Source: Escherichia coli (lineage in GTDB: Bacteria; Pseudomonadota; Gammaproteobacteria; Enterobacterales; Enterobacteriaceae). From it: DNA of 64,000 nucleotides. The position numbers and the translations under genes were made by a program. This document shows, in pieces, positions 17,831-51,379 of the stretch. Within the stretch, counting starts at the first letter, position 1; each line of letters opens with the position of its first letter. The notes beneath the pieces were generated by a model that saw only the letters and a program-made list of their open reading frames with translations, ran no database searches and was not told the origin of the DNA. Location of the stretch: assembly GCF_044324785.1 (NCBI RefSeq), contig NZ_CP172127.1. The stretch is one strand, 5' to 3'.

Positions 17831-17872
17831 GTCGGACGTAGGTCGGATAAGGCGTTCTTGCCGCATCCGACA
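17831..17872. repeat. REP-like palindromic element in the purC 5' region
   Basis: ggtcggataaggcgttcttgccgcatccgac has the REP signature (GGATAAGGCG...GCCGCATCC) with gtcggat/atccgac arms. Confidence 0.65.
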
Positions 17873-22494: not shown

Positions 22495-22558
22495 TAGGCC
22501 TGATAAGACCGTATCAGGCATCATGGCCGGATGCGGCGTTAACGCCTTATCCGGCCAC
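22495..22558. repeat. Pair of REP elements (BIME-like) between convergent ypfH and ypfN
   Basis: gtaggcctgataagaccgtatcaggc followed by ggccggatgcggcgttaacgccttatccggcc, a canonical REP sequence. Confidence 0.8.
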
Positions 22559-32748: not shown

Positions 32749-33792
32749 ATGCGCTATCGCATTTTCCTTCTCTTTTTTTTCGCTTTGTTGCCGACGTCTT
32801 TGGTGTGGGCGGCACCAGCGCAACGGGCGTTTTCCGACTGGCAGGTTACCTGTAATAACCAAAATTTCTGTGTAGCGCGCAATACGGGCGATCATAATGG
32901 ACTGGTGATGACCCTGAGCCGCAGCGCCGGGGCGCATACCGATGCCGTTTTACGTATTGAGCGCGGCGGGTTGAAATCGCCGGATGCGTCTGAAGGGGAG
33001 ATAGCGCCACGGCTGCTGTTAGATGGTGAGCCGTTGGCATTAAGTGGTGACAAGTGGCGGATTTCACCATGGTTATTAGTAACCGATGATACGGCAACCA
33101 TCACCGCGTTTTTGCAGATGATTCAGGAAGGGAAGGCGATCACCTTACGCGACGGCAATCAGACCATTTCTCTGAGTGGCTTAAAAGCGGCGTTGTTGTT
33201 TATTGATGCTCAGCAAAAGCGCGTTGGCAGTGAAACCGCGTGGATCAAGAAAGGGGACGAACCGCCGCTCAGCGTACCGCCCGCGCCTGCGCTGAAAGAG
33301 GTCGCGGTGGTTAACCCAACGCCGACGCCACTCTCACTCGAAGAACGTAACGATTTGCTGGATTATGGAAACTGGCGGATGAATGGTCTGCGCTGCTCGC
33401 TTGATCCGTTACGTCGTGAGGTGAATGTCACTGCGTTGACCGATGATAAAGCACTGATGATGATTAGCTGTGAGGCAGGGGCCTATAACACCATTGATTT
33501 GGCATGGATTGTGTCGCGTAAAAAGCCGCTAGCCTCGCGCCCGGTTCGGTTGCGTTTGCCGTTCAACAACGGTCAGGAGACGAATGAACTGGAACTGATG
33601 AACGCAACATTTGATGAGAAATCGCGTGAACTGGTGACCTTAACGAAAGGGCGCGGATTAAGCGATTGTGGCATTCAGGCGCGCTGGCGCTTTGACGGTC
33701 AGCGTTTTCGCCTGGTGCGTTACGCCGCAGAACCCACCTGCGATAACTGGCATGGGCCAGACGCCTGGCCCACGTTGTGGATCACCCGTTAA
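32749..33792 (+). CDS. ypfG: Uncharacterised secreted protein YpfG (DUF1176)
   Basis: 347 aa; N-terminal signal peptide (LLFFFALLPTSLVWA|AP); several Cys. Confidence 0.9.
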   Translation: MRYRIFLLFFFALLPTSLVWAAPAQRAFSDWQVTCNNQNFCVARNTGDHNGLVMTLSRSAGAHTDAVLRIERGGLKSPDASEGEIAPRLLLDGEPLALSGDKWRISPWLLVTDDTATITAFLQMIQEGKAITLRDGNQTISLSGLKAALLFIDAQQKRVGSETAWIKKGDEPPLSVPPAPALKEVAVVNPTPTPLSLEERNDLLDYGNWRMNGLRCSLDPLRREVNVTALTDDKALMMISCEAGAYNTIDLAWIVSRKKPLASRPVRLRLPFNNGQETNELELMNATFDEKSRELVTLTKGRGLSDCGIQARWRFDGQRFRLVRYAAEPTCDNWHGPDAWPTLWITR

Positions 33793-33824
33793 ACAAAATC
33801 CCAGATGCGCCCCTAAAAAGAGCA

Positions 33825-33873
33825 CGGACCGTCCCCTCGCCCCTCTGGGGAGAGGGTTAGGGTGAGGGGAACA
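33825..33873. repeat. GC-rich ~49 bp intergenic repeat, copy 1 (between convergent ypfG and tktB)
   Basis: cggaccgtcccctcgcccctctggggagagggttagggtgaggggaaca; internally palindromic; differs at 2 positions from the copy at 47218-47266. Confidence 0.75.
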
Positions 33874-33894
33874 TACAGCATCCGGCGATCACCA

Positions 33895-35898
33895 TCAGGC
33901 ACCTTTCACTCCCAGCACCTTATGCGCTTTTGCCACAATATTCTCGGCGGTAAAGCCAAAGAACGGGAACAGCTTATCCGCCGGAGCAGATTCCCCATAA
34001 CCTGTCATCCCGACAATTGCCCCTTTCAGGCCAACATATTTGTACCAGTAATCGGCAATACCCGCTTCCACCGCCACGCGAGCCGCAACGTTAGAAGGCA
34101 ACACCGACTCGCGATATTCCTCATCCTGGGCGTCGAAAATATCGGTCGAGGGCAGGGAAACTACGCGTACATTGCGACCTTCTCCCGCTAATTTCTCTGC
34201 CGCTTGCAGGGTGATTTCCATCTCTGAACCGGTGGCAATCAAAATAATATCCGGCTTGCCGCCGCTGTCTTTCAACACATAACCACCACGAGCAATCTCT
34301 TTAACCTGATCCGGCGTACGTTCCACCTGGGCCAGATTCTGCCTGGAGAGGATCAGTGCCGTCGGTCCGTTGTGGCGCTCAACCGCCAGCTTCCAGCCCA
34401 CCGCTGCTTCCACCTGATCGCACGGTCGCCAGGTGCTGAAATTTGGCGTTAAGCGCAGACTGGCCAGTTGCTCAACAGCCTGGTGCGTAGGACCATCTTC
34501 GCCCAGACCAATTGAGTCGTGGGTATAAACCATAATCTGCCGCGCTTTCATCAGTGCCGCCATCCGCGCGGCGTTACGGGCGTATTCAACAAACATCAGG
34601 AACGTCGCGGTATACGGTACAAATCCACCGTGGTGCGCGATGCCATTGGCGATAGCGGTCATACCAAATTCACGCACCCCGTAGTGAATATAGTTGCCCG
34701 CCGGATCTTCCTTCAGCGACACAGAACCTTTCCAGATGGTGAGGTTGCTGGGAGCCAGATCCGCCGAACCGCCGAGCAGCTCCGGTAGCATCGGCCCGTA
34801 AGCGTTAAGCGTATTTTGCGAAGCCTTACGGGTAGCGATTTTCGCCGGATTTGCCTGTAACTCATTGATATATTTCTGAGTCGTTTTCTCCCAGTCCTTC
34901 GGTAAACCACCGCTCATCCGACGGGTAAACTCTTCTGCCAGTTGCGGATGGGCCTTTTTGTAGGCTGCATACTTCTCATTCCAGCTCTGCTGCGCTTTTT
35001 CGCCTTTTTCGCGGGCATCCCAGGCGTGATAAATCTCTTTAGGGATTTCAAATGGCGGATGGTGCCAGCCCAGTTTTTGCCGTGCCAGCGCCACTTCTTC
35101 TTCCCCCAGCGGTGCGCCATGCGCCTCTTCCTTACCTGCTTTATTCGGCGATCCAAAGCCAATCACTGTACGACAGATAATCAGCGACGGCTTATCTTTC
35201 ACGCTTTGCGCTTCAAGGATCGCTTCCTTCACCGCCTGCGGATCGTGACCGTCGATCTCGTGGATCACATGCCAGTGATAGGCTTCAAAACGTTTTGCTG
35301 TATCGTCGGTAAACCAGCCTTCGGTTTCACCGTCGATGGAAATACCGTTGTGATCGTAAAAACCAATCAGCTTGCCCAGTCCCAGCGTGCCCGCCAGCGA
35401 ACAGACTTCGTGGGAAATACCTTCCATCAGGCAACCGTCGCCCATAAACACATAGGTGAAGTGATCGACAATTTCATGATCCGGCTGGTTAAACTGCGCC
35501 GCCAGTGTACGCTCTGCTATCGCCAGCCCGACGGCGTTCGCCAAACCTTGTCCAAGTGGACCGGTGGTGGTTTCAACACCTGGCGTATAACCAATCTCCG
35601 GGTGACCTGGGGTTTTTGAATGCAACTGACGGAAGTTCTTCAGCTCTTCCAGCGGCAGGTCGTAACCGGTCAGATGCAGCAAACTGTAGAGCAGCATCGA
35701 CGCGTGGCCGTTGGAAAGAATAAAGCGGTCGCGATCATACCAGGTTGGGTCGGTGGGGTTATGTTTAAGAAAATCGTTCCACAGCACTTCGGCAATATCA
35801 GCCATGCCCATCGGCGCGCCGGGATGACCAGAATTGGCTTTTTGTACCGCATCCATACTGAGTGCGCGAATCGCATTGGCAAGGTCTTTTCGGGACAT
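33895..35898 (-). CDS. tktB: Transketolase 2 TktB
   Basis: 667 aa from ATG 35898 ([27 protein letters not shown]...); the ORF track adds 21 upstream codons. Confidence 0.96.
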
Positions 35899-46033: not shown

Positions 46034-47210
46034 ATTGCAGACCGCGCTCTTTCAGGCGTTCGATACCCTGAATCTGCAACGGGTAAAAACATTTAGCGTT
46101 CCACCGGTGACGCTTTGCGGTCCGGGCGCGATGAGCAGTTGCGGGCAGCAAGCGCAAACGCGTGGGCTGAAACATCTGTTCGTGATGGCAGACAGCTTTT
46201 TGCATCAGGCGGGGATGACCGCCGGGCTGACGCGTAGCCTGGCCGTTAAAGGTATCGCCATGACGCTCTGGCCATGTCCGGTGGGCGAACCGTGCATCAC
46301 CGACGTGTGTGCAGCCGTGGCGCAGTTGCGTGAATCAGGTTGTGACGGGGTGATCGCGTTTGGCGGCGGCTCGGTGCTGGATGCGGCGAAAGCCGTGGCG
46401 TTGCTGGTGACAAACCCGGATAGCACGCTGGCAGAAATGTCAGAAACCAGCGTTCTGCAACCGCGCCTGCCGTTGATTGCCATTCCAACGACCGCCGGAA
46501 CCGGCTCTGAAACCACCAACGTAACGGTGATTATCGACGCGGTGAGCGAGCGCAAGCAGGTGTTAGCCCATGCCTCGCTGATGCCGGATGTGGCGATTCT
46601 TGACGCCGCATTGACCGAAGGTGTGCCGTCGCATGTCACGGCGATGACCGGTATCGACGCGTTAACTCATGCCATTGAAGCGTACAGCGCGCTGAACGCC
46701 ACACCGTTTACCGACAGTCTGGCGATTGGCGCTATTGCGATGATTGGCAAATCGCTGCCGAAAGCGGTGGGCTACGGTCACGACCTTGCCGCGCGCGAGA
46801 GCATGTTGCTGGCTTCATGTATGGCGGGAATGGCGTTTTCCAGTGCGGGGCTTGGGTTATGCCACGCGATGGCGCATCAGCCGGGGGCGGCGCTGCATAT
46901 TCCGCACGGTCTGGCGAACGCCATGCTACTGCCAACGGTGATGGAGTTTAACCGGATGGTCTGTCGTGATCGGTTTAGTCAGATTGGTCGGGCGCTGACA
47001 AACAAGAAAACTGACGAGCGCGAGGTAATTAGCGTGATAAGCGAGCTGATTGCGGAAGTTGGGATCAACAAGCGGCTGGCTGATGTGGGCGCAACCACCG
47101 GACATTACCGCGCATGGGCGCAGGCCGCGATGGAAGATATTTGTCTGCGCAGCAACCCGCGTACCGCCAGCCTGGAGCAGATTATTGGTCTGTATGCTGC
47201 GGCGCAATAA
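46023..47210 (+). CDS. eutG: Iron-containing alcohol dehydrogenase EutG
   Basis: 395 aa Fe-ADH-family ORF; overlaps eutJ by 11 nt. Confidence 0.94.
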   Translation: MQNELQTALFQAFDTLNLQRVKTFSVPPVTLCGPGAMSSCGQQAQTRGLKHLFVMADSFLHQAGMTAGLTRSLAVKGIAMTLWPCPVGEPCITDVCAAVAQLRESGCDGVIAFGGGSVLDAAKAVALLVTNPDSTLAEMSETSVLQPRLPLIAIPTTAGTGSETTNVTVIIDAVSERKQVLAHASLMPDVAILDAALTEGVPSHVTAMTGIDALTHAIEAYSALNATPFTDSLAIGAIAMIGKSLPKAVGYGHDLAARESMLLASCMAGMAFSSAGLGLCHAMAHQPGAALHIPHGLANAMLLPTVMEFNRMVCRDRFSQIGRALTNKKTDEREVISVISELIAEVGINKRLADVGATTGHYRAWAQAAMEDICLRSNPRTASLEQIIGLYAAAQ

Positions 47211-47217
47211 AAGTGTA

Positions 47218-47335
47218 CGGACAGTCCCCTCGCCCCTTTGGGGAGAGGGTTAGGGTGAGGGGAACAGAGTCGCGCCGGTGCAAACAATTACCCTCACCCC
47301 GGCCCCTCGGCTTCCAGAGTGAGGGAAAAACCCAC
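47218..47335. repeat. GC-rich intergenic repeat, copy 2, plus downstream inverted partial copies, between eutG and eutH
   Basis: 47218-47266 cggacagtcccctcgcccctttggggagagggttagggtgaggggaaca; 47291-47300 ccctcacccc is the reverse complement of the gggtgagggg core, and gagtgaggg recurs at ~47318. Confidence 0.75.
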
Positions 47336-47379
47336 TTTCAGCATTGGCAATAAATAACAACTAACAGGGAGTAAAGGTG

Positions 47380-48606
47380 ATGGGAATTAACGAAATCATC
47401 ATGTACATCATGATGTTCTTTATGCTGATAGCTGCCGTAGACAGGATCCTGTCGCAGTTCGGTGGTTCTGCTCGTTTCCTCGGTAAGTTCGGTAAAAGTA
47501 TCGAAGGATCAGGCGGTCAGTTCGAAGAAGGCTTTATGGCAATGGGCGCACTGGGCCTGGCGATGGTTGGTATGACCGCGCTGGCACCGGTACTGGCCCA
47601 CGTACTCGGGCCGGTGATTATCCCGGTTTACGAAATGCTCGGCGCAAACCCGTCAATGTTCGCCGGAACACTGCTGGCGTGCGATATGGGCGGCTTCTTC
47701 CTCGCCAAAGAGCTGGCGGGCGGCGACGTAGCAGCGTGGCTATACTCTGGGTTAATTCTCGGGTCGATGATGGGGCCAACGATTGTGTTTTCCATTCCGG
47801 TGGCGCTCGGCATTATCGAACCTTCTGACCGTCGTTATCTGGCGCTCGGCGTGCTGGCGGGCATTGTGACCATTCCAATTGGTTGTATCGCCGGTGGCCT
47901 GGTGGCTATGTACTCCGGTGTACAGATCAACGGCCAGCCGGTGGAATTCACCTTTGCGCTTATCCTGATGAACATGATCCCGGTACTTATCGTCGCGGTA
48001 CTGGTGGCGCTGGGGCTGAAATTCATCCCGGAAAAAATGATCAACGGCTTCCAGATCTTCGCCAAATTCCTCGTTGCATTGATCACCCTCGGTCTTGCTG
48101 CCGCGGTAGTGAAATTCCTGCTTGGCTGGGAACTGATCCCCGGTCTGGATCCTATCTTTATGGCCCCTGGCGATAAACCCGGTGAAGTGATGCGCGCCAT
48201 TGAAGTTATCGGTTCTATCTCCTGCGTTCTGTTAGGGGCGTACCCGATGGTACTGCTGCTGACTCGCTGGTTTGAAAAACCGCTGATGAGCGTCGGTAAG
48301 GTGCTGAATATGAACAATATCGCGGCAGCTGGCATGGTGGCAACGCTTGCCAACAACATCCCAATGTTTGGCATGATGAAGCTGATGGATACCCGCGGCA
48401 AAGTCATCAACTGCGCCTTCGCCGTTTCCGCTGCTTTCGCCCTGGGTGACCACTTAGGCTTCGCCGCTGCCAACATGAACGCCATGATTTTCCCGATGAT
48501 TGTCGGCAAATTGATCGGCGGCGTAACGGCGATTGGCGTGGCGATGATGCTGGTGCCAAAAGAAGACGCGACCGCGGCTAAAACCGAAGCGGAGGCACAA
48601 TCGTGA
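47380..48606 (+). CDS. eutH: Ethanolamine permease/facilitator EutH
   Basis: 408 aa polytopic membrane protein from ATG 47380 (GGGAG RBS). Confidence 0.94.
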   Translation: MGINEIIMYIMMFFMLIAAVDRILSQFGGSARFLGKFGKSIEGSGGQFEEGFMAMGALGLAMVGMTALAPVLAHVLGPVIIPVYEMLGANPSMFAGTLLACDMGGFFLAKELAGGDVAAWLYSGLILGSMMGPTIVFSIPVALGIIEPSDRRYLALGVLAGIVTIPIGCIAGGLVAMYSGVQINGQPVEFTFALILMNMIPVLIVAVLVALGLKFIPEKMINGFQIFAKFLVALITLGLAAAVVKFLLGWELIPGLDPIFMAPGDKPGEVMRAIEVIGSISCVLLGAYPMVLLLTRWFEKPLMSVGKVLNMNNIAAAGMVATLANNIPMFGMMKLMDTRGKVINCAFAVSAAFALGDHLGFAAANMNAMIFPMIVGKLIGGVTAIGVAMMLVPKEDATAAKTEAEAQS

Positions 48607-50006
48607 ACACTCGCCAGCTACTGAGCGTCGGTATCGATATCGGCACCACCACCACCCAGGTGATCTTCTCCCACCTGGAACTGGTTAACCGTGCGGCGGT
48701 GTCGCAGGTGCCGCGCTACGAATTCATCAAACGCGAAATTAGCTGGCAAAGCCCGGTGTTCTTTACCCCTGTCGATAAACAGGGTGGTTTAAAAGAAGCG
48801 GAACTGAAATCGCTGATTTTAGAGCAATATCAGGCTGCGGGCATTGCGCCGGAAAGCGTTGATTCTGGTGCCATCATCATCACCGGTGAAAGCGCGAAAA
48901 CCCGCAACGCTCGCCCGGCGGTGATGACGCTCTCCCAGTCGCTGGGCGATTTTGTCGTCGCCAGCGCCGGGCCGCATCTCGAATCCGTGATCGCCGGTCA
49001 CGGTGCCGGGGCGCAAACCCTTTCTGAACAACGGCTGTGTCGGGTACTGAATATCGACATCGGCGGTGGCACCGCGAACTACGCCCTGTTCGATGCCGGA
49101 AAAATCAGCGGCACTGCCTGCCTCAACGTTGGCGGTCGCCTGCTGGAAACCGACAGCCAGGGGCGCGTGGTTTACGCTCATATACCGGGGCAGATGATTG
49201 TGGATGAGTGCTTCGGTGCAGGCACTGACGCCCGTTCGCTGACCGGCACGCAGTTGGTGCAGGTTACCCGGCGGATGGCAGAACTGATTGTCGAAGTGAT
49301 TGACGGAACGCTCTCGCCGCTCGCGCAGGCATTGATGCAAACCGGTTTGTTGCCCGCAGGTGTTACGCCCGAAATCATTACGCTTTCTGGCGGCGTGGGC
49401 GAATGTTATCGCCACCAGCCCGCCGACCCGTTCTGTTTTGCCGATATCGGCCCGCTTCTGGCAACGGCGCTGCATGACCATCAGCGCCTGCGTGAGATGA
49501 ACGTGCAGTTTCCAGCGCAAACCGTGCGCGCCACGGTGATTGGCGCGGGCGCACATACCCTTTCGCTCTCTGGCAGCACAATCTGGCTGGAGGGCGTACA
49601 ACTGCCGCTGCGCAATTTGCCGGTGGCGATCCCAATTGATGAAACGGATCTGGTGAGTGCCTGGCAACAGGCGCTGATTCAGCTGGATCTTTGCCCCAAA
49701 ACTGACGCGTACGTGCTGGCGCTTCCCGCCTCGCTGCCTGTGCGTTACGCCGCGGTACTGACGGTCATCAACGCGCTGGTCGATTTCGTCGCGCGTTTTC
49801 CGAATCCGCATCCCCTGCTGGTGGTGGCCGGGCAGGACTTTGGTAAAGCTCTGGGCATGTTGTTGCGCCCACAGCTACAACAACTCCCGTTGGCAGTCAT
49901 TGACGAAGTGATTGTCCGCGCGGGGGACTATATCGACATTGGTACGCCTCTTTTTGGCGGATCGGTTGTGCCGGTGACGGTGAAATCACTCGCATTTCCT
50001 TCCTGA
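48603..50006 (+). CDS. eutA: Ethanolamine ammonia-lyase reactivase EutA
   Basis: 467 aa, GTG start overlapping the eutH stop (GTGA). Confidence 0.94.
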   Translation: MNTRQLLSVGIDIGTTTTQVIFSHLELVNRAAVSQVPRYEFIKREISWQSPVFFTPVDKQGGLKEAELKSLILEQYQAAGIAPESVDSGAIIITGESAKTRNARPAVMTLSQSLGDFVVASAGPHLESVIAGHGAGAQTLSEQRLCRVLNIDIGGGTANYALFDAGKISGTACLNVGGRLLETDSQGRVVYAHIPGQMIVDECFGAGTDARSLTGTQLVQVTRRMAELIVEVIDGTLSPLAQALMQTGLLPAGVTPEIITLSGGVGECYRHQPADPFCFADIGPLLATALHDHQRLREMNVQFPAQTVRATVIGAGAHTLSLSGSTIWLEGVQLPLRNLPVAIPIDETDLVSAWQQALIQLDLCPKTDAYVLALPASLPVRYAAVLTVINALVDFVARFPNPHPLLVVAGQDFGKALGMLLRPQLQQLPLAVIDEVIVRAGDYIDIGTPLFGGSVVPVTVKSLAFPS

Positions 50007-50017
50007 GGGAACGACTT

Positions 50018-51379
50018 ATGAAACTAAAGACCACATTGTTCGGCAATGTATATCAGTTTAAGGATGTAAAAGAGGTGCTGGCTAAAGCCAACGAACTGCG
50101 TTCGGGGGATGTGCTGGCGGGCGTTGCAGCGGCAAGCTCACAAGAGCGCGTGGCGGCAAAGCAGGTGTTGTCGGAAATGACCGTAGCGGACATCCGCAAT
50201 AATCCGGTGATTGCCTATGAAGATGACTGCGTGACGCGGCTGATTCAGGACGACGTTAACGAAACGGCCTACAACCAGATTAAAAACTGGAGCATCAGCG
50301 AACTGCGTGAGTATGTGCTGAGCGATGAAACCAGCGTGGACGACATTGCCTTTACCCGCAAAGGGCTGACCTCGGAAGTGGTCGCGGCGGTAGCGAAGAT
50401 TTGCTCCAACGCGGACCTGATCTACGGCGCGAAGAAAATGCCGGTAATCAAAAAGGCCAATACCACCATCGGTATTCCGGGCACCTTTAGCGCCCGTTTG
50501 CAGCCAAATGACACCCGTGACGACGTGCAAAGTATCGCCGCGCAAATCTACGAAGGGCTTTCCTTCGGGGTGGGCGATGCGGTGATCGGCGTTAACCCGG
50601 TGACTGACGATGTGGAAAACTTAAGCCGCGTGTTGGACACCATTTACGGCGTGATCGACAAATTCAACATTCCGACCCAGGGCTGCGTGCTGGCGCACGT
50701 CACCACCCAGATTGAAGCGATCCGTCGTGGCGCACCAGGCGGGCTGATTTTCCAGAGTATCTGCGGCAGCGAAAAAGGGCTGAAAGAATTTGGCGTGGAG
50801 CTGGCGATGCTCGATGAAGCACGCGCAGTGGGCGCGGAGTTCAACCGTATCGCCGGGGAAAACTGCCTCTACTTCGAAACCGGACAAGGCTCTGCGCTGT
50901 CCGCTGGCGCTAACTTCGGCGCAGACCAGGTGACGATGGAAGCACGTAACTATGGGCTGGCGCGTCATTACGATCCGTTTATCGTCAACACCGTGGTCGG
51001 CTTTATTGGGCCGGAGTATCTCTACAACGACCGCCAGATTATCCGTGCGGGCTTAGAAGATCACTTTATGGGTAAGCTGAGCGGCATCTCTATGGGCTGT
51101 GACTGCTGCTACACCAACCACGCTGACGCTGACCAGAACCTCAACGAAAACCTCATGATCCTGCTCGCCACCGCAGGCTGCAACTACATCATGGGGATGC
51201 CGCTGGGTGATGACATCATGCTCAACTACCAGACCACCGCCTTCCACGATACTGCCACTGTGCGTCAGTTACTCAACCTGCGCCCGTCACCGGAGTTTGA
51301 ACGCTGGCTGGAAAGCATGGGCATTATGGCAAACGGTCGCCTGACCAAACGGGCGGGCGATCCGTCACTGTTCTTCTGA
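50018..51379 (+). CDS. eutB: Ethanolamine ammonia-lyase large subunit EutB
   Basis: 453 aa; begins 11 bp after eutA with no inserted DNA. Confidence 0.96.
   Translation: MKLKTTLFGNVYQFKDVKEVLAKANELRSGDVLAGVAAASSQERVAAKQVLSEMTVADIRNNPVIAYEDDCVTRLIQDDVNETAYNQIKNWSISELREYVLSDETSVDDIAFTRKGLTSEVVAAVAKICSNADLIYGAKKMPVIKKANTTIGIPGTFSARLQPNDTRDDVQSIAAQIYEGLSFGVGDAVIGVNPVTDDVENLSRVLDTIYGVIDKFNIPTQGCVLAHVTTQIEAIRRGAPGGLIFQSICGSEKGLKEFGVELAMLDEARAVGAEFNRIAGENCLYFETGQGSALSAGANFGADQVTMEARNYGLARHYDPFIVNTVVGFIGPEYLYNDRQIIRAGLEDHFMGKLSGISMGCDCCYTNHADADQNLNENLMILLATAGCNYIMGMPLGDDIMLNYQTTAFHDTATVRQLLNLRPSPEFERWLESMGIMANGRLTKRAGDPSLFF

Follow-up and report, generated by a model that had tools for sequence, protein, structure and literature searches.

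A candidate REP-like RNA 3′-end barrier: the strain-variable BoxC repeat between ypfG and tktB in Escherichia coli

What is the GC-rich repeat that lies between the convergent genes ypfG and tktB, and what might it do to the transcripts that reach it from either side? The repeat stands in a 64,000-nucleotide stretch of Escherichia coli DNA, referred to here as the window. An earlier note described it as the second copy of a 49-nt member of a dispersed extragenic family, which it left unnamed, and proposed that it acts as a terminator or insulator. The open reading frames of the window place the spacer at 33793–33894, and its length of exactly 102 bp agrees with that description. The flanking genes are annotated as ypfG (DUF1176) and tkt in matching E. 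coli genomes, and as ypfG and tktB in K-12.

32749–33792, plus strand: ypfG (DUF1176), the upstream convergent gene, from the open reading frame and the annotation of matching genomes
33895–35898, minus strand: tktB (transketolase 2), the convergent gene, from the open reading frame and annotation, with the 5′ end taken from the 2004-nt annotated gene

A repeat search of the window aligned 33816–33873 with 47209–47266, in the eutG–eutH spacer, as a direct repeat of 58 nt with 93% identity and four mismatches (33821, 33823, 33830 and 33845). The two copies and their near-identity were thus correctly seen, as 33825–33873 carries exactly two mismatches over 49 nt, but the repeated unit is 58 nt rather than 49 nt long. 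Its 37-nt core, CCCCTCGCCCCTCTGGGGAGAGGGTTAGGGTGAGGGG (33833–33869), occurs twice in the window at up to one mismatch, against an expectation of 0.00 from 100 shuffles.

By its sequence, the ypfG–tktB repeat is a solo type-A BoxC, a family also called PIT element (Hoyne & Maher 2000/2002), TMECO type A 'mm' (Holder 2015) and HPG1 (Kaplan 2016). The motif was named BoxC in the 1990s and found again as the PIT element by Hoyne & Maher (Holder et al. 2015, PMC4666352). Holder et al. (PMC4666352) give the TMECO consensus as CCCTCNCCC-N3-6-GGGNGAGGG-N3-GGGNGAGGG and distinguish type A, with a TTA loop, from type B, with a CCG loop. A strict search with this expression matched at 33834–33868 and 47227–47261 and nowhere else in the 64 kb, and the ypfG–tktB copy carries the type-A form, GGGAGAGGG-TTA-GGGTGAGGG, at 33848–33868. 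The 36-nt core shows no difference from K-12 TMECO nos. 9, 16, 19 and 22, nor does the core of the eut copy from nos. 7, 11 and 15. The left flank of ~20 nt and the GAACA on the right are common to the 58-nt unit of the window and the K-12 BoxC copies. Kaplan et al. 2016 (PMC5100583) treated these sequences under the names HPG1 and HPG2 and described them as a 'G-quadruplex-hairpin-duplex switch'. In the list of Petrillo et al., BoxC has 32 copies and, from the literature, a length of 56 bp.

The genome-wide count and the comparison with catalogued repeats, which the earlier note had suggested as checks, confirmed a dispersed extragenic family and supplied the name that it lacked. In a BLAST search of 5,426 complete E. 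coli genomes the 58-mer was present in 5,425, at 17 places in the median genome and at 29 in the richest; Holder et al. (PMC4666352) report 1 to 29 copies per strain. Strain N3 (NZ_CP031609.1), which matches the window at both loci with 100% identity, has 22 BoxC places. Both window copies are intergenic, judged from the open reading frames and spacers.

Other repeat families were rejected. ERIC, or IRU, is a 127-bp unit that contains the ERIC1R and ERIC2 primer sequences, and these match nowhere in the window within three mismatches. An identity with REP/BIME (consensus GCCGGATGCGGCG ... CCGGCCTAC) was discarded, since no alignment was obtained between the element and the REP cassette that K-12 has at this site; the sole REP-like part at the ypfG–tktB BoxC is the right flank that the alleles share, GCATCCGGCG. 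The left edge, CCCAGATGCGCCCCT, was considered as a REP remnant, but its 11/15 match is not significant, because the window holds 17 REP-half matches at up to two mismatches, many of them outside its two REP elements. An Rfam covariance-model search of the ypfG–tktB spacer, run with a permissive E-value, returned chance-level matches only (E = 0.17 and 3.6), whose scores fall well short of the gathering thresholds. Ordinary REP elements (GCCGGATGCGGCG...CCTTATCCGGCC) lie at 17841–17871 and 22526–22556 of the window, so that REP and BoxC coexist in this strain.

The ypfG–tktB copy is built as follows.

33816–33873, plus strand (the G-rich strand): solo BoxC of type A (TTA second loop), the full 58-nt unit, from the repeat, the TMECO expression and the K-12 core identity
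33816–33832, plus strand: conserved left flank of the unit, AAAAGAGCACGGACCGT, with a related flank in other type-A copies
33833–33846, plus strand: pyrimidine block Y, CCCCTCGCCCCTCT, which pairs with the purine blocks in minimum-energy folds
33847–33856, plus strand: purine block R1, GGGGAGAGGG
33857–33859, plus strand: loop TTA
33860–33869, plus strand: purine block R2, GGGTGAGGGG
33870–33873, plus strand: AACA after R2

The related left flank (consensus A.aaA.Gtgc.Cg.aC.GT) is common to 10 E. coli type-A copies, and in the triplex motif published by Holder et al. 2015 (PMC4666352) the pyrimidine block supplies the first stem. The palindromes CCCCTC/GAGGGG and CCCTCT/AGAGGG that had been pointed out are present and fold on both strands, but the third block, GGGTGAGGGG, had been overlooked. 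On the reading of its letters, this block gives the copy a pyrimidine-purine-purine (triplex or G4) architecture, and R1-TTA-R2 (33847–33869) matches the canonical G4 motif, G3N3G3N3G3N3G3. As RNA, the 60-nt element is predicted to fold at -26.2 kcal/mol on the plus strand and -21.1 kcal/mol on the minus strand, and the 43-nt core as DNA at -12.4 and -9.7 kcal/mol. The minimum-energy fold mostly uses the second purine block, because the 'G' variant of the pyrimidine block forms a G-U wobble there, whereas it makes a G-A mismatch with the first. These folds have modest z-scores (whole spacer -1.1; element -2.1 and -0.8), since any sequence of such GC content folds well.

We compared the spacer with that of other strains. 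Direct alignment shows that K-12 carries a REP sequence (GTAGGCCGGATAAGACGC...GCATCCGGCAAT) at ypfG–tktB between identical flanks, which delimit an exchangeable cassette.

33800–33875, no strand assigned: 76-nt allele-specific cassette, in place of the REP/BIME of K-12 and most strains, bounded by the shared flanks ...AAACAAAAT on the left and CAGCATCCGGCGAT on the right
33876–33889, no strand assigned: CAGCATCCGGCGAT, a unit derived from a REP 3′ half and present in both allele classes, from the alignment

In Table 1 of Holder et al. (PMC4666352) the K-12 copies leave the interval from 1.35 to 3.05 Mb empty, and therefore neither window BoxC exists in K-12. The BoxC allele at ypfG–tktB is covered by 832 of the 5,426 complete genomes (~15%), and the BoxC composite at eutG–eutH is found in 304 (~6%). 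Alignment of nine sampled ypfG–tktB alleles, from K-12 and eight other strains, gave two classes, BoxC or REP. Spacers of the BoxC class are 102, 99 or 87 bp long. Those of the REP class measure 75–122 bp and contain 1–3 REP halves and 1–4 tandem copies of the 14-nt unit CAGCATCCGGCAAT, the unit of 33876–33889 standing in tandem beside the REP's own GCATCCGGCAAT end. Whether BoxC or REP fills it, the spacer is hypervariable. The REP-derived right flank CAGCATCCGGCGAT within the BoxC allele suggests an earlier REP at the site, and thus that REP may have occupied this slot first.

The eutG–eutH spacer behaves in the same way: K-12 has a two-unit BIME at the position of BoxC, and in the other sampled alleles the number of BIME units, each of ~100 bp, ranges from one to about five, while the flanks are identical. 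BoxC and REP/BIME are thus alternative stop-to-stop fillers at both loci, which lie 13 kb apart. Among the matches listed (a spread of 60 per locus), neither locus showed an empty allele. Bachellier and colleagues are said to have described, in 1997, boxC insertions in or near BIMEs of natural isolates.

BoxC does not always alternate with REP, a rule that three further loci exclude. At tauD–hemB, where BoxC is present in 3,601 of the 5,426 genomes, the alternative in about one third of genomes is a 39-bp spacer with a simple hairpin, ATGCCGGGTTGGATAACCCGGCAT (for example in strain FDAARGOS_448), and the swap takes in all 106 bp of the BoxC spacer between the two stop codons. BoxC is nearly fixed at zntA–tusA (5,148 of 5,426 genomes), where some strains have a three-REP BIME beside the retained BoxC, and at aaeR–tldD (5,415 of 5,426). 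The common denominator is that the whole stop-to-stop spacer switches among fillers, each of which forms a GC-rich hairpin. The 'instability' earlier ascribed to BoxC may in part be such cassette switching between hairpin-forming repeats.

The eutG–eutH copy proved to be the sister of the ypfG–tktB copy, as had been noted, but also a composite, in which the type-A arm is joined to a degenerate inverted type-B arm. Comparison of the window copies with five BoxC pairs and three solo copies of K-12 shows that a full element opens with a left flank of ~20 nt and an A arm, continues through GAACAG into a conserved spacer of ~20 nt, and closes with an inverted B arm followed by GAAAAC.

47209–47340, plus strand: sister copy, the eutG–eutH composite BoxC, with the A arm at 47209–47266, the conserved spacer and the degenerate inverted B arm at 47291–47325

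The composite is predicted to fold as a single long hairpin (-53.6 and -56.7 kcal/mol). Its central spacer is not a leftover BIME linker, being kept in the K-12 BoxC pairs. Five K-12 sites and the eut site have the A arm plus the inverted B arm, whereas the ypfG–tktB copy is the A arm alone: no inverted partner, CCCTCACCC, was found downstream of it, and the REPIN-like doublet is seen at eutG–eutH and not at ypfG–tktB. The stop codon of eutG (TAA, 47208–47210) overlaps the left edge of the eutG–eutH BoxC. In the same region of the window eutA (48603–50006) is directly followed by eutB (50018–51379); the strain is therefore without the CPZ-55 cryptic prophage, which abuts eutA in K-12.

To place BoxC relative to RNA ends, the curated K-12 Term-seq tables of Adams et al. 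2021 (PMC7815308) were searched by coordinate. Ends lie 3–11 nt past three BoxC hairpins.

K-12 3781065, plus strand: primary 3′ end of lldD, 3–4 nt past the BoxC hairpin, with an intrinsic score of 1.32 (cutoff 3.0) and a significant Rho termination region
K-12 3959467, minus strand: 3′ end 4 nt past the BoxC hairpin, 28,044 reads
K-12 624567, minus strand: 3′ end 11 nt past the BoxC hairpin, which has the orientation that the tktB mRNA would meet here, 50,300 reads

At ten further K-12 BoxC sites the tables, a short curated list from which weakly expressed genes may be missing, show no end. A very strong orphan 3′ end in the fepB leader (NC_000913.3 624680, minus strand; 103,563 and 243,213 reads) falls 4 nt before the RNA would enter the BoxC pair, upstream and not downstream of the element. 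The low-scoring lldD end in a Rho region, together with the ends past BoxC hairpins, points to 3′-end protection rather than termination. Dar & Sorek 2018 found that Rho-dependent transcripts end just 3′ of stable stem-loops that lack U residues; these block PNPase and RNase II, and 24% of them are REPs.

We propose, with a probability of roughly 0.55, that the ypfG–tktB BoxC is a strain-variable spacer filler that acts as a REP-like passive barrier to 3′ exonucleases after Rho termination further downstream. The 3′ UTRs of the ypfG and tktB transcripts alike would contain a very stable stem-loop with no U tract after it. RNA polymerase would most likely read past BoxC into the opposite gene, whose antisense RNA is C-rich, and Rho would stop it there; 3′-to-5′ exonucleases would trim the RNA back to the BoxC hairpin, which would both set and protect the steady-state 3′ end. 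This is the job attributed to REP elements, the occupants of the slot in K-12. Read-through RNA at ypfG–tktB has more C than G within 100–250 nt in both directions. We infer that the same barrier effect would operate at the ypfG–tktB copy and could carry weight for the expression of ypfG or tktB.

A second hairpin at the locus bears on how dominant such an end would be.

33754–33771, minus strand: hairpin GGGCCAG-ACGC-CTGGCCC in the 3′ coding end of ypfG, conserved in the window; the K-12 tktB read-through RNA ends there

Adams et al. 2021 (PMC7815308) list a K-12 3′ end at 2581778 (plus strand), antisense to ypfG and with the sequence ...GGGCCAGGCGTCTGGCCCATGCCA. This tktB read-through end lies just past the ypfG hairpin and beyond the REP spacer, and as it is the sole one listed, the hairpin of the spacer does not necessarily mark the dominant end. 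As summarised by Holder et al. (PMC4666352), Hoyne & Maher 2002 saw neither promoter nor terminator activity and no effect on RNA polymerase; results of this kind, so far as that summary gives them, fit a passive barrier without lending it positive support. The published Term-seq ends at the base of BoxC hairpins give it a testable REP-like role, which the reporter assays of 2002 would have missed.

The repeat could also be a pure genomic passenger, selfish or neutral and without consequence for ypfG or tktB, in which case the RNA ends at other copies would be incidental to stable hairpins. BoxC varies in presence between strains and in copy number from 1 to 29 per strain, a published range that the BLAST count also spans. 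Holder et al. (PMC4666352) found no link to gene function or position, and the slot tolerates fillers as different as REP, BIME or a simple hairpin. Against this, every alternative filler that we saw is a stable GC-rich hairpin, and empty alleles are missing from ypfG–tktB and eutG–eutH among the matches listed. Paralogous cores are nearly identical while their flanks diverge, and some copies, those at aaeR–tldD and zntA–tusA, approach fixation. We regard a mere passenger as unlikely, though as a serious contender to the exonuclease barrier.

A related question is how BoxC came to occupy such spacers. An exact-match scan of one genome per species with the 23-mer GGGGAGAGGGTTAGGGTGAGGGG, the purine half of BoxC, found it in at least 120 genome stretches from many phyla. 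Among the matches listed are Alpha-, Beta-, Gamma- and Deltaproteobacteria, a Desulfotomaculum MAG and a Methanomicrobiaceae MAG; further carriers among them are Asticcacaulis, Azospirillum, Methylovirgula and deltaproteobacterial MAGs, and Pseudomonas sp. dw_612 has ~30 copies. The 23-mer is usually preceded by a CCCCTC(T/G)CCCC block, and, again among the matches listed, the same pyrimidine block lies upstream in 111 of 127 copies, with lineage-specific outer flanks, and an inverted partner lies within 120 nt in 27 of 127. Upstream of the core, ACTCGGTCAGT is common to the E. coli alx–sstT copy and the Pseudomonas copies. Holder et al. (PMC4666352) counted 3,610 copies over 262 proteobacterial genomes, with Salmonella devoid of them. 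Some Enterobacter strains hold more than 300 triplex motifs, and E. asburiae LF7a has 143 TMECO copies.

One could picture BoxC as a recently active, non-autonomous REPIN-like mobile element, moved in trans by a putative widespread enzyme, that lands in the REP/BIME spacers at gene 3′ ends and can displace the REPs. The solo ypfG–tktB copy would then be a half element in a gutted REP, its RNA hairpin replacing REP as protector of the 3′ end. We consider this scenario quite improbable as a whole. If it were true, the near-identical core across distant phyla would reflect the recognition needs of the mobilising enzyme.

A different proposal places the effect in the DNA itself: the unwound G-rich strand would form an intrastrand triplex or a G-quadruplex and stall polymerases, making the spacer a rearrangement hotspot (Holder) or a structural switch (Kaplan). 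The sequence fits the triplex consensus as well as the G4 motif, and published CD and NMR data on oligonucleotides identical to the BoxC core demonstrate triplex or G4 formation in vitro as single-stranded DNA. Higher variability around BoxC loci has also been published, and the ypfG–tktB spacer, at 75 to 122 bp, is itself hypervariable. However, published in vivo DMS footprinting detected no triplex, and double-stranded DNA stayed in the B-form. Moreover, the REP alleles at ypfG–tktB vary equally in their REP halves and tandem units, and the variability of the spacer is therefore not specific to BoxC. We find this DNA-structural explanation of the ypfG–tktB copy very doubtful.

The terminator role first put forward for the element, a bidirectional intrinsic (Rho-independent) terminator for ypfG and tktB, is largely refuted. 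The position between convergent genes, shared by 6 of 16 K-12 type-A copies, and the GC-rich stem-loop on both strands would suit it. However, no U-rich tract lies within 0–2 nt of the stem on either strand of the ypfG–tktB BoxC, the nearest T run, on the tktB-sense strand, begins 13 nt after it, and an intrinsic-terminator scan of 33400–34300 found 0 terminator-like sites on either strand. A promoter scan of the ypfG–tktB spacer was likewise negative. The reporter assays, in the summary of Holder et al. (PMC4666352), also speak against terminator activity, and the only BoxC-associated end with a listed intrinsic score, that of lldD, is below the cutoff. By its sequence features the ypfG–tktB BoxC is not an intrinsic terminator, and a terminator function in the classical sense is highly improbable.

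Least probable is a putative protein binding site, whether for an insulator or nucleoid-organising factor or for an enzyme that mobilises the repeat: the exact 23-mer and its upstream pyrimidine block are kept across many phyla between lineage-specific flanks, which structure alone hardly explains, but Kaplan et al. (PMC5100583) found no match to a known transcription-factor motif, and the literature consulted on BoxC/PIT/TMECO/HPG1 reports no protein partner.

Comparison with known systems indicates where this copy belongs. In consensus, TTA loop, intergenic place, copy number, unit of ~56–58 bp and flanks it fits BoxC throughout, with no difference in kind; the locus is empty of BoxC in K-12, so the copy is missing from K-12 catalogues. 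Four names have been given to this known family since the 1990s, and one more copy of it is in itself of little weight. Annotation pipelines leave BoxC unlabelled, which means that readers keep rediscovering it.

REPINs are inverted REP doublets (Bertels & Rainey). The composite BoxC resembles them in that A arm, spacer and inverted B arm form one long hairpin, and solo copies resemble half elements. It differs in that the ypfG–tktB copy is a singlet, and neither a mobilising enzyme nor a target-site duplication has been identified for BoxC. We know of no cognate RAYT-type transposase for it.

REP/BIME elements share with BoxC the GC-rich imperfect palindromes, the spacers at gene 3′ ends and, in K-12 and most strains, the very same slot, and both are expected to yield exonuclease-resistant RNA stem-loops without U tracts. 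Their sequences are unrelated: the GCCGGATGCG / GTAG motif of REP is absent from BoxC, whereas BoxC has a third purine block and hence triplex or G4 potential, and it is present in ~20 copies against several hundred REPs. The closest functional counterparts are the protective stem-loops of Dar & Sorek 2018, a class defined by function and not by sequence, in which we place the ypfG–tktB copy by analogy. Like them, BoxC would form a stable stem-loop without following U residues, and RNA ends lie a few nucleotides downstream of it at three K-12 copies, one of them in a Rho region.
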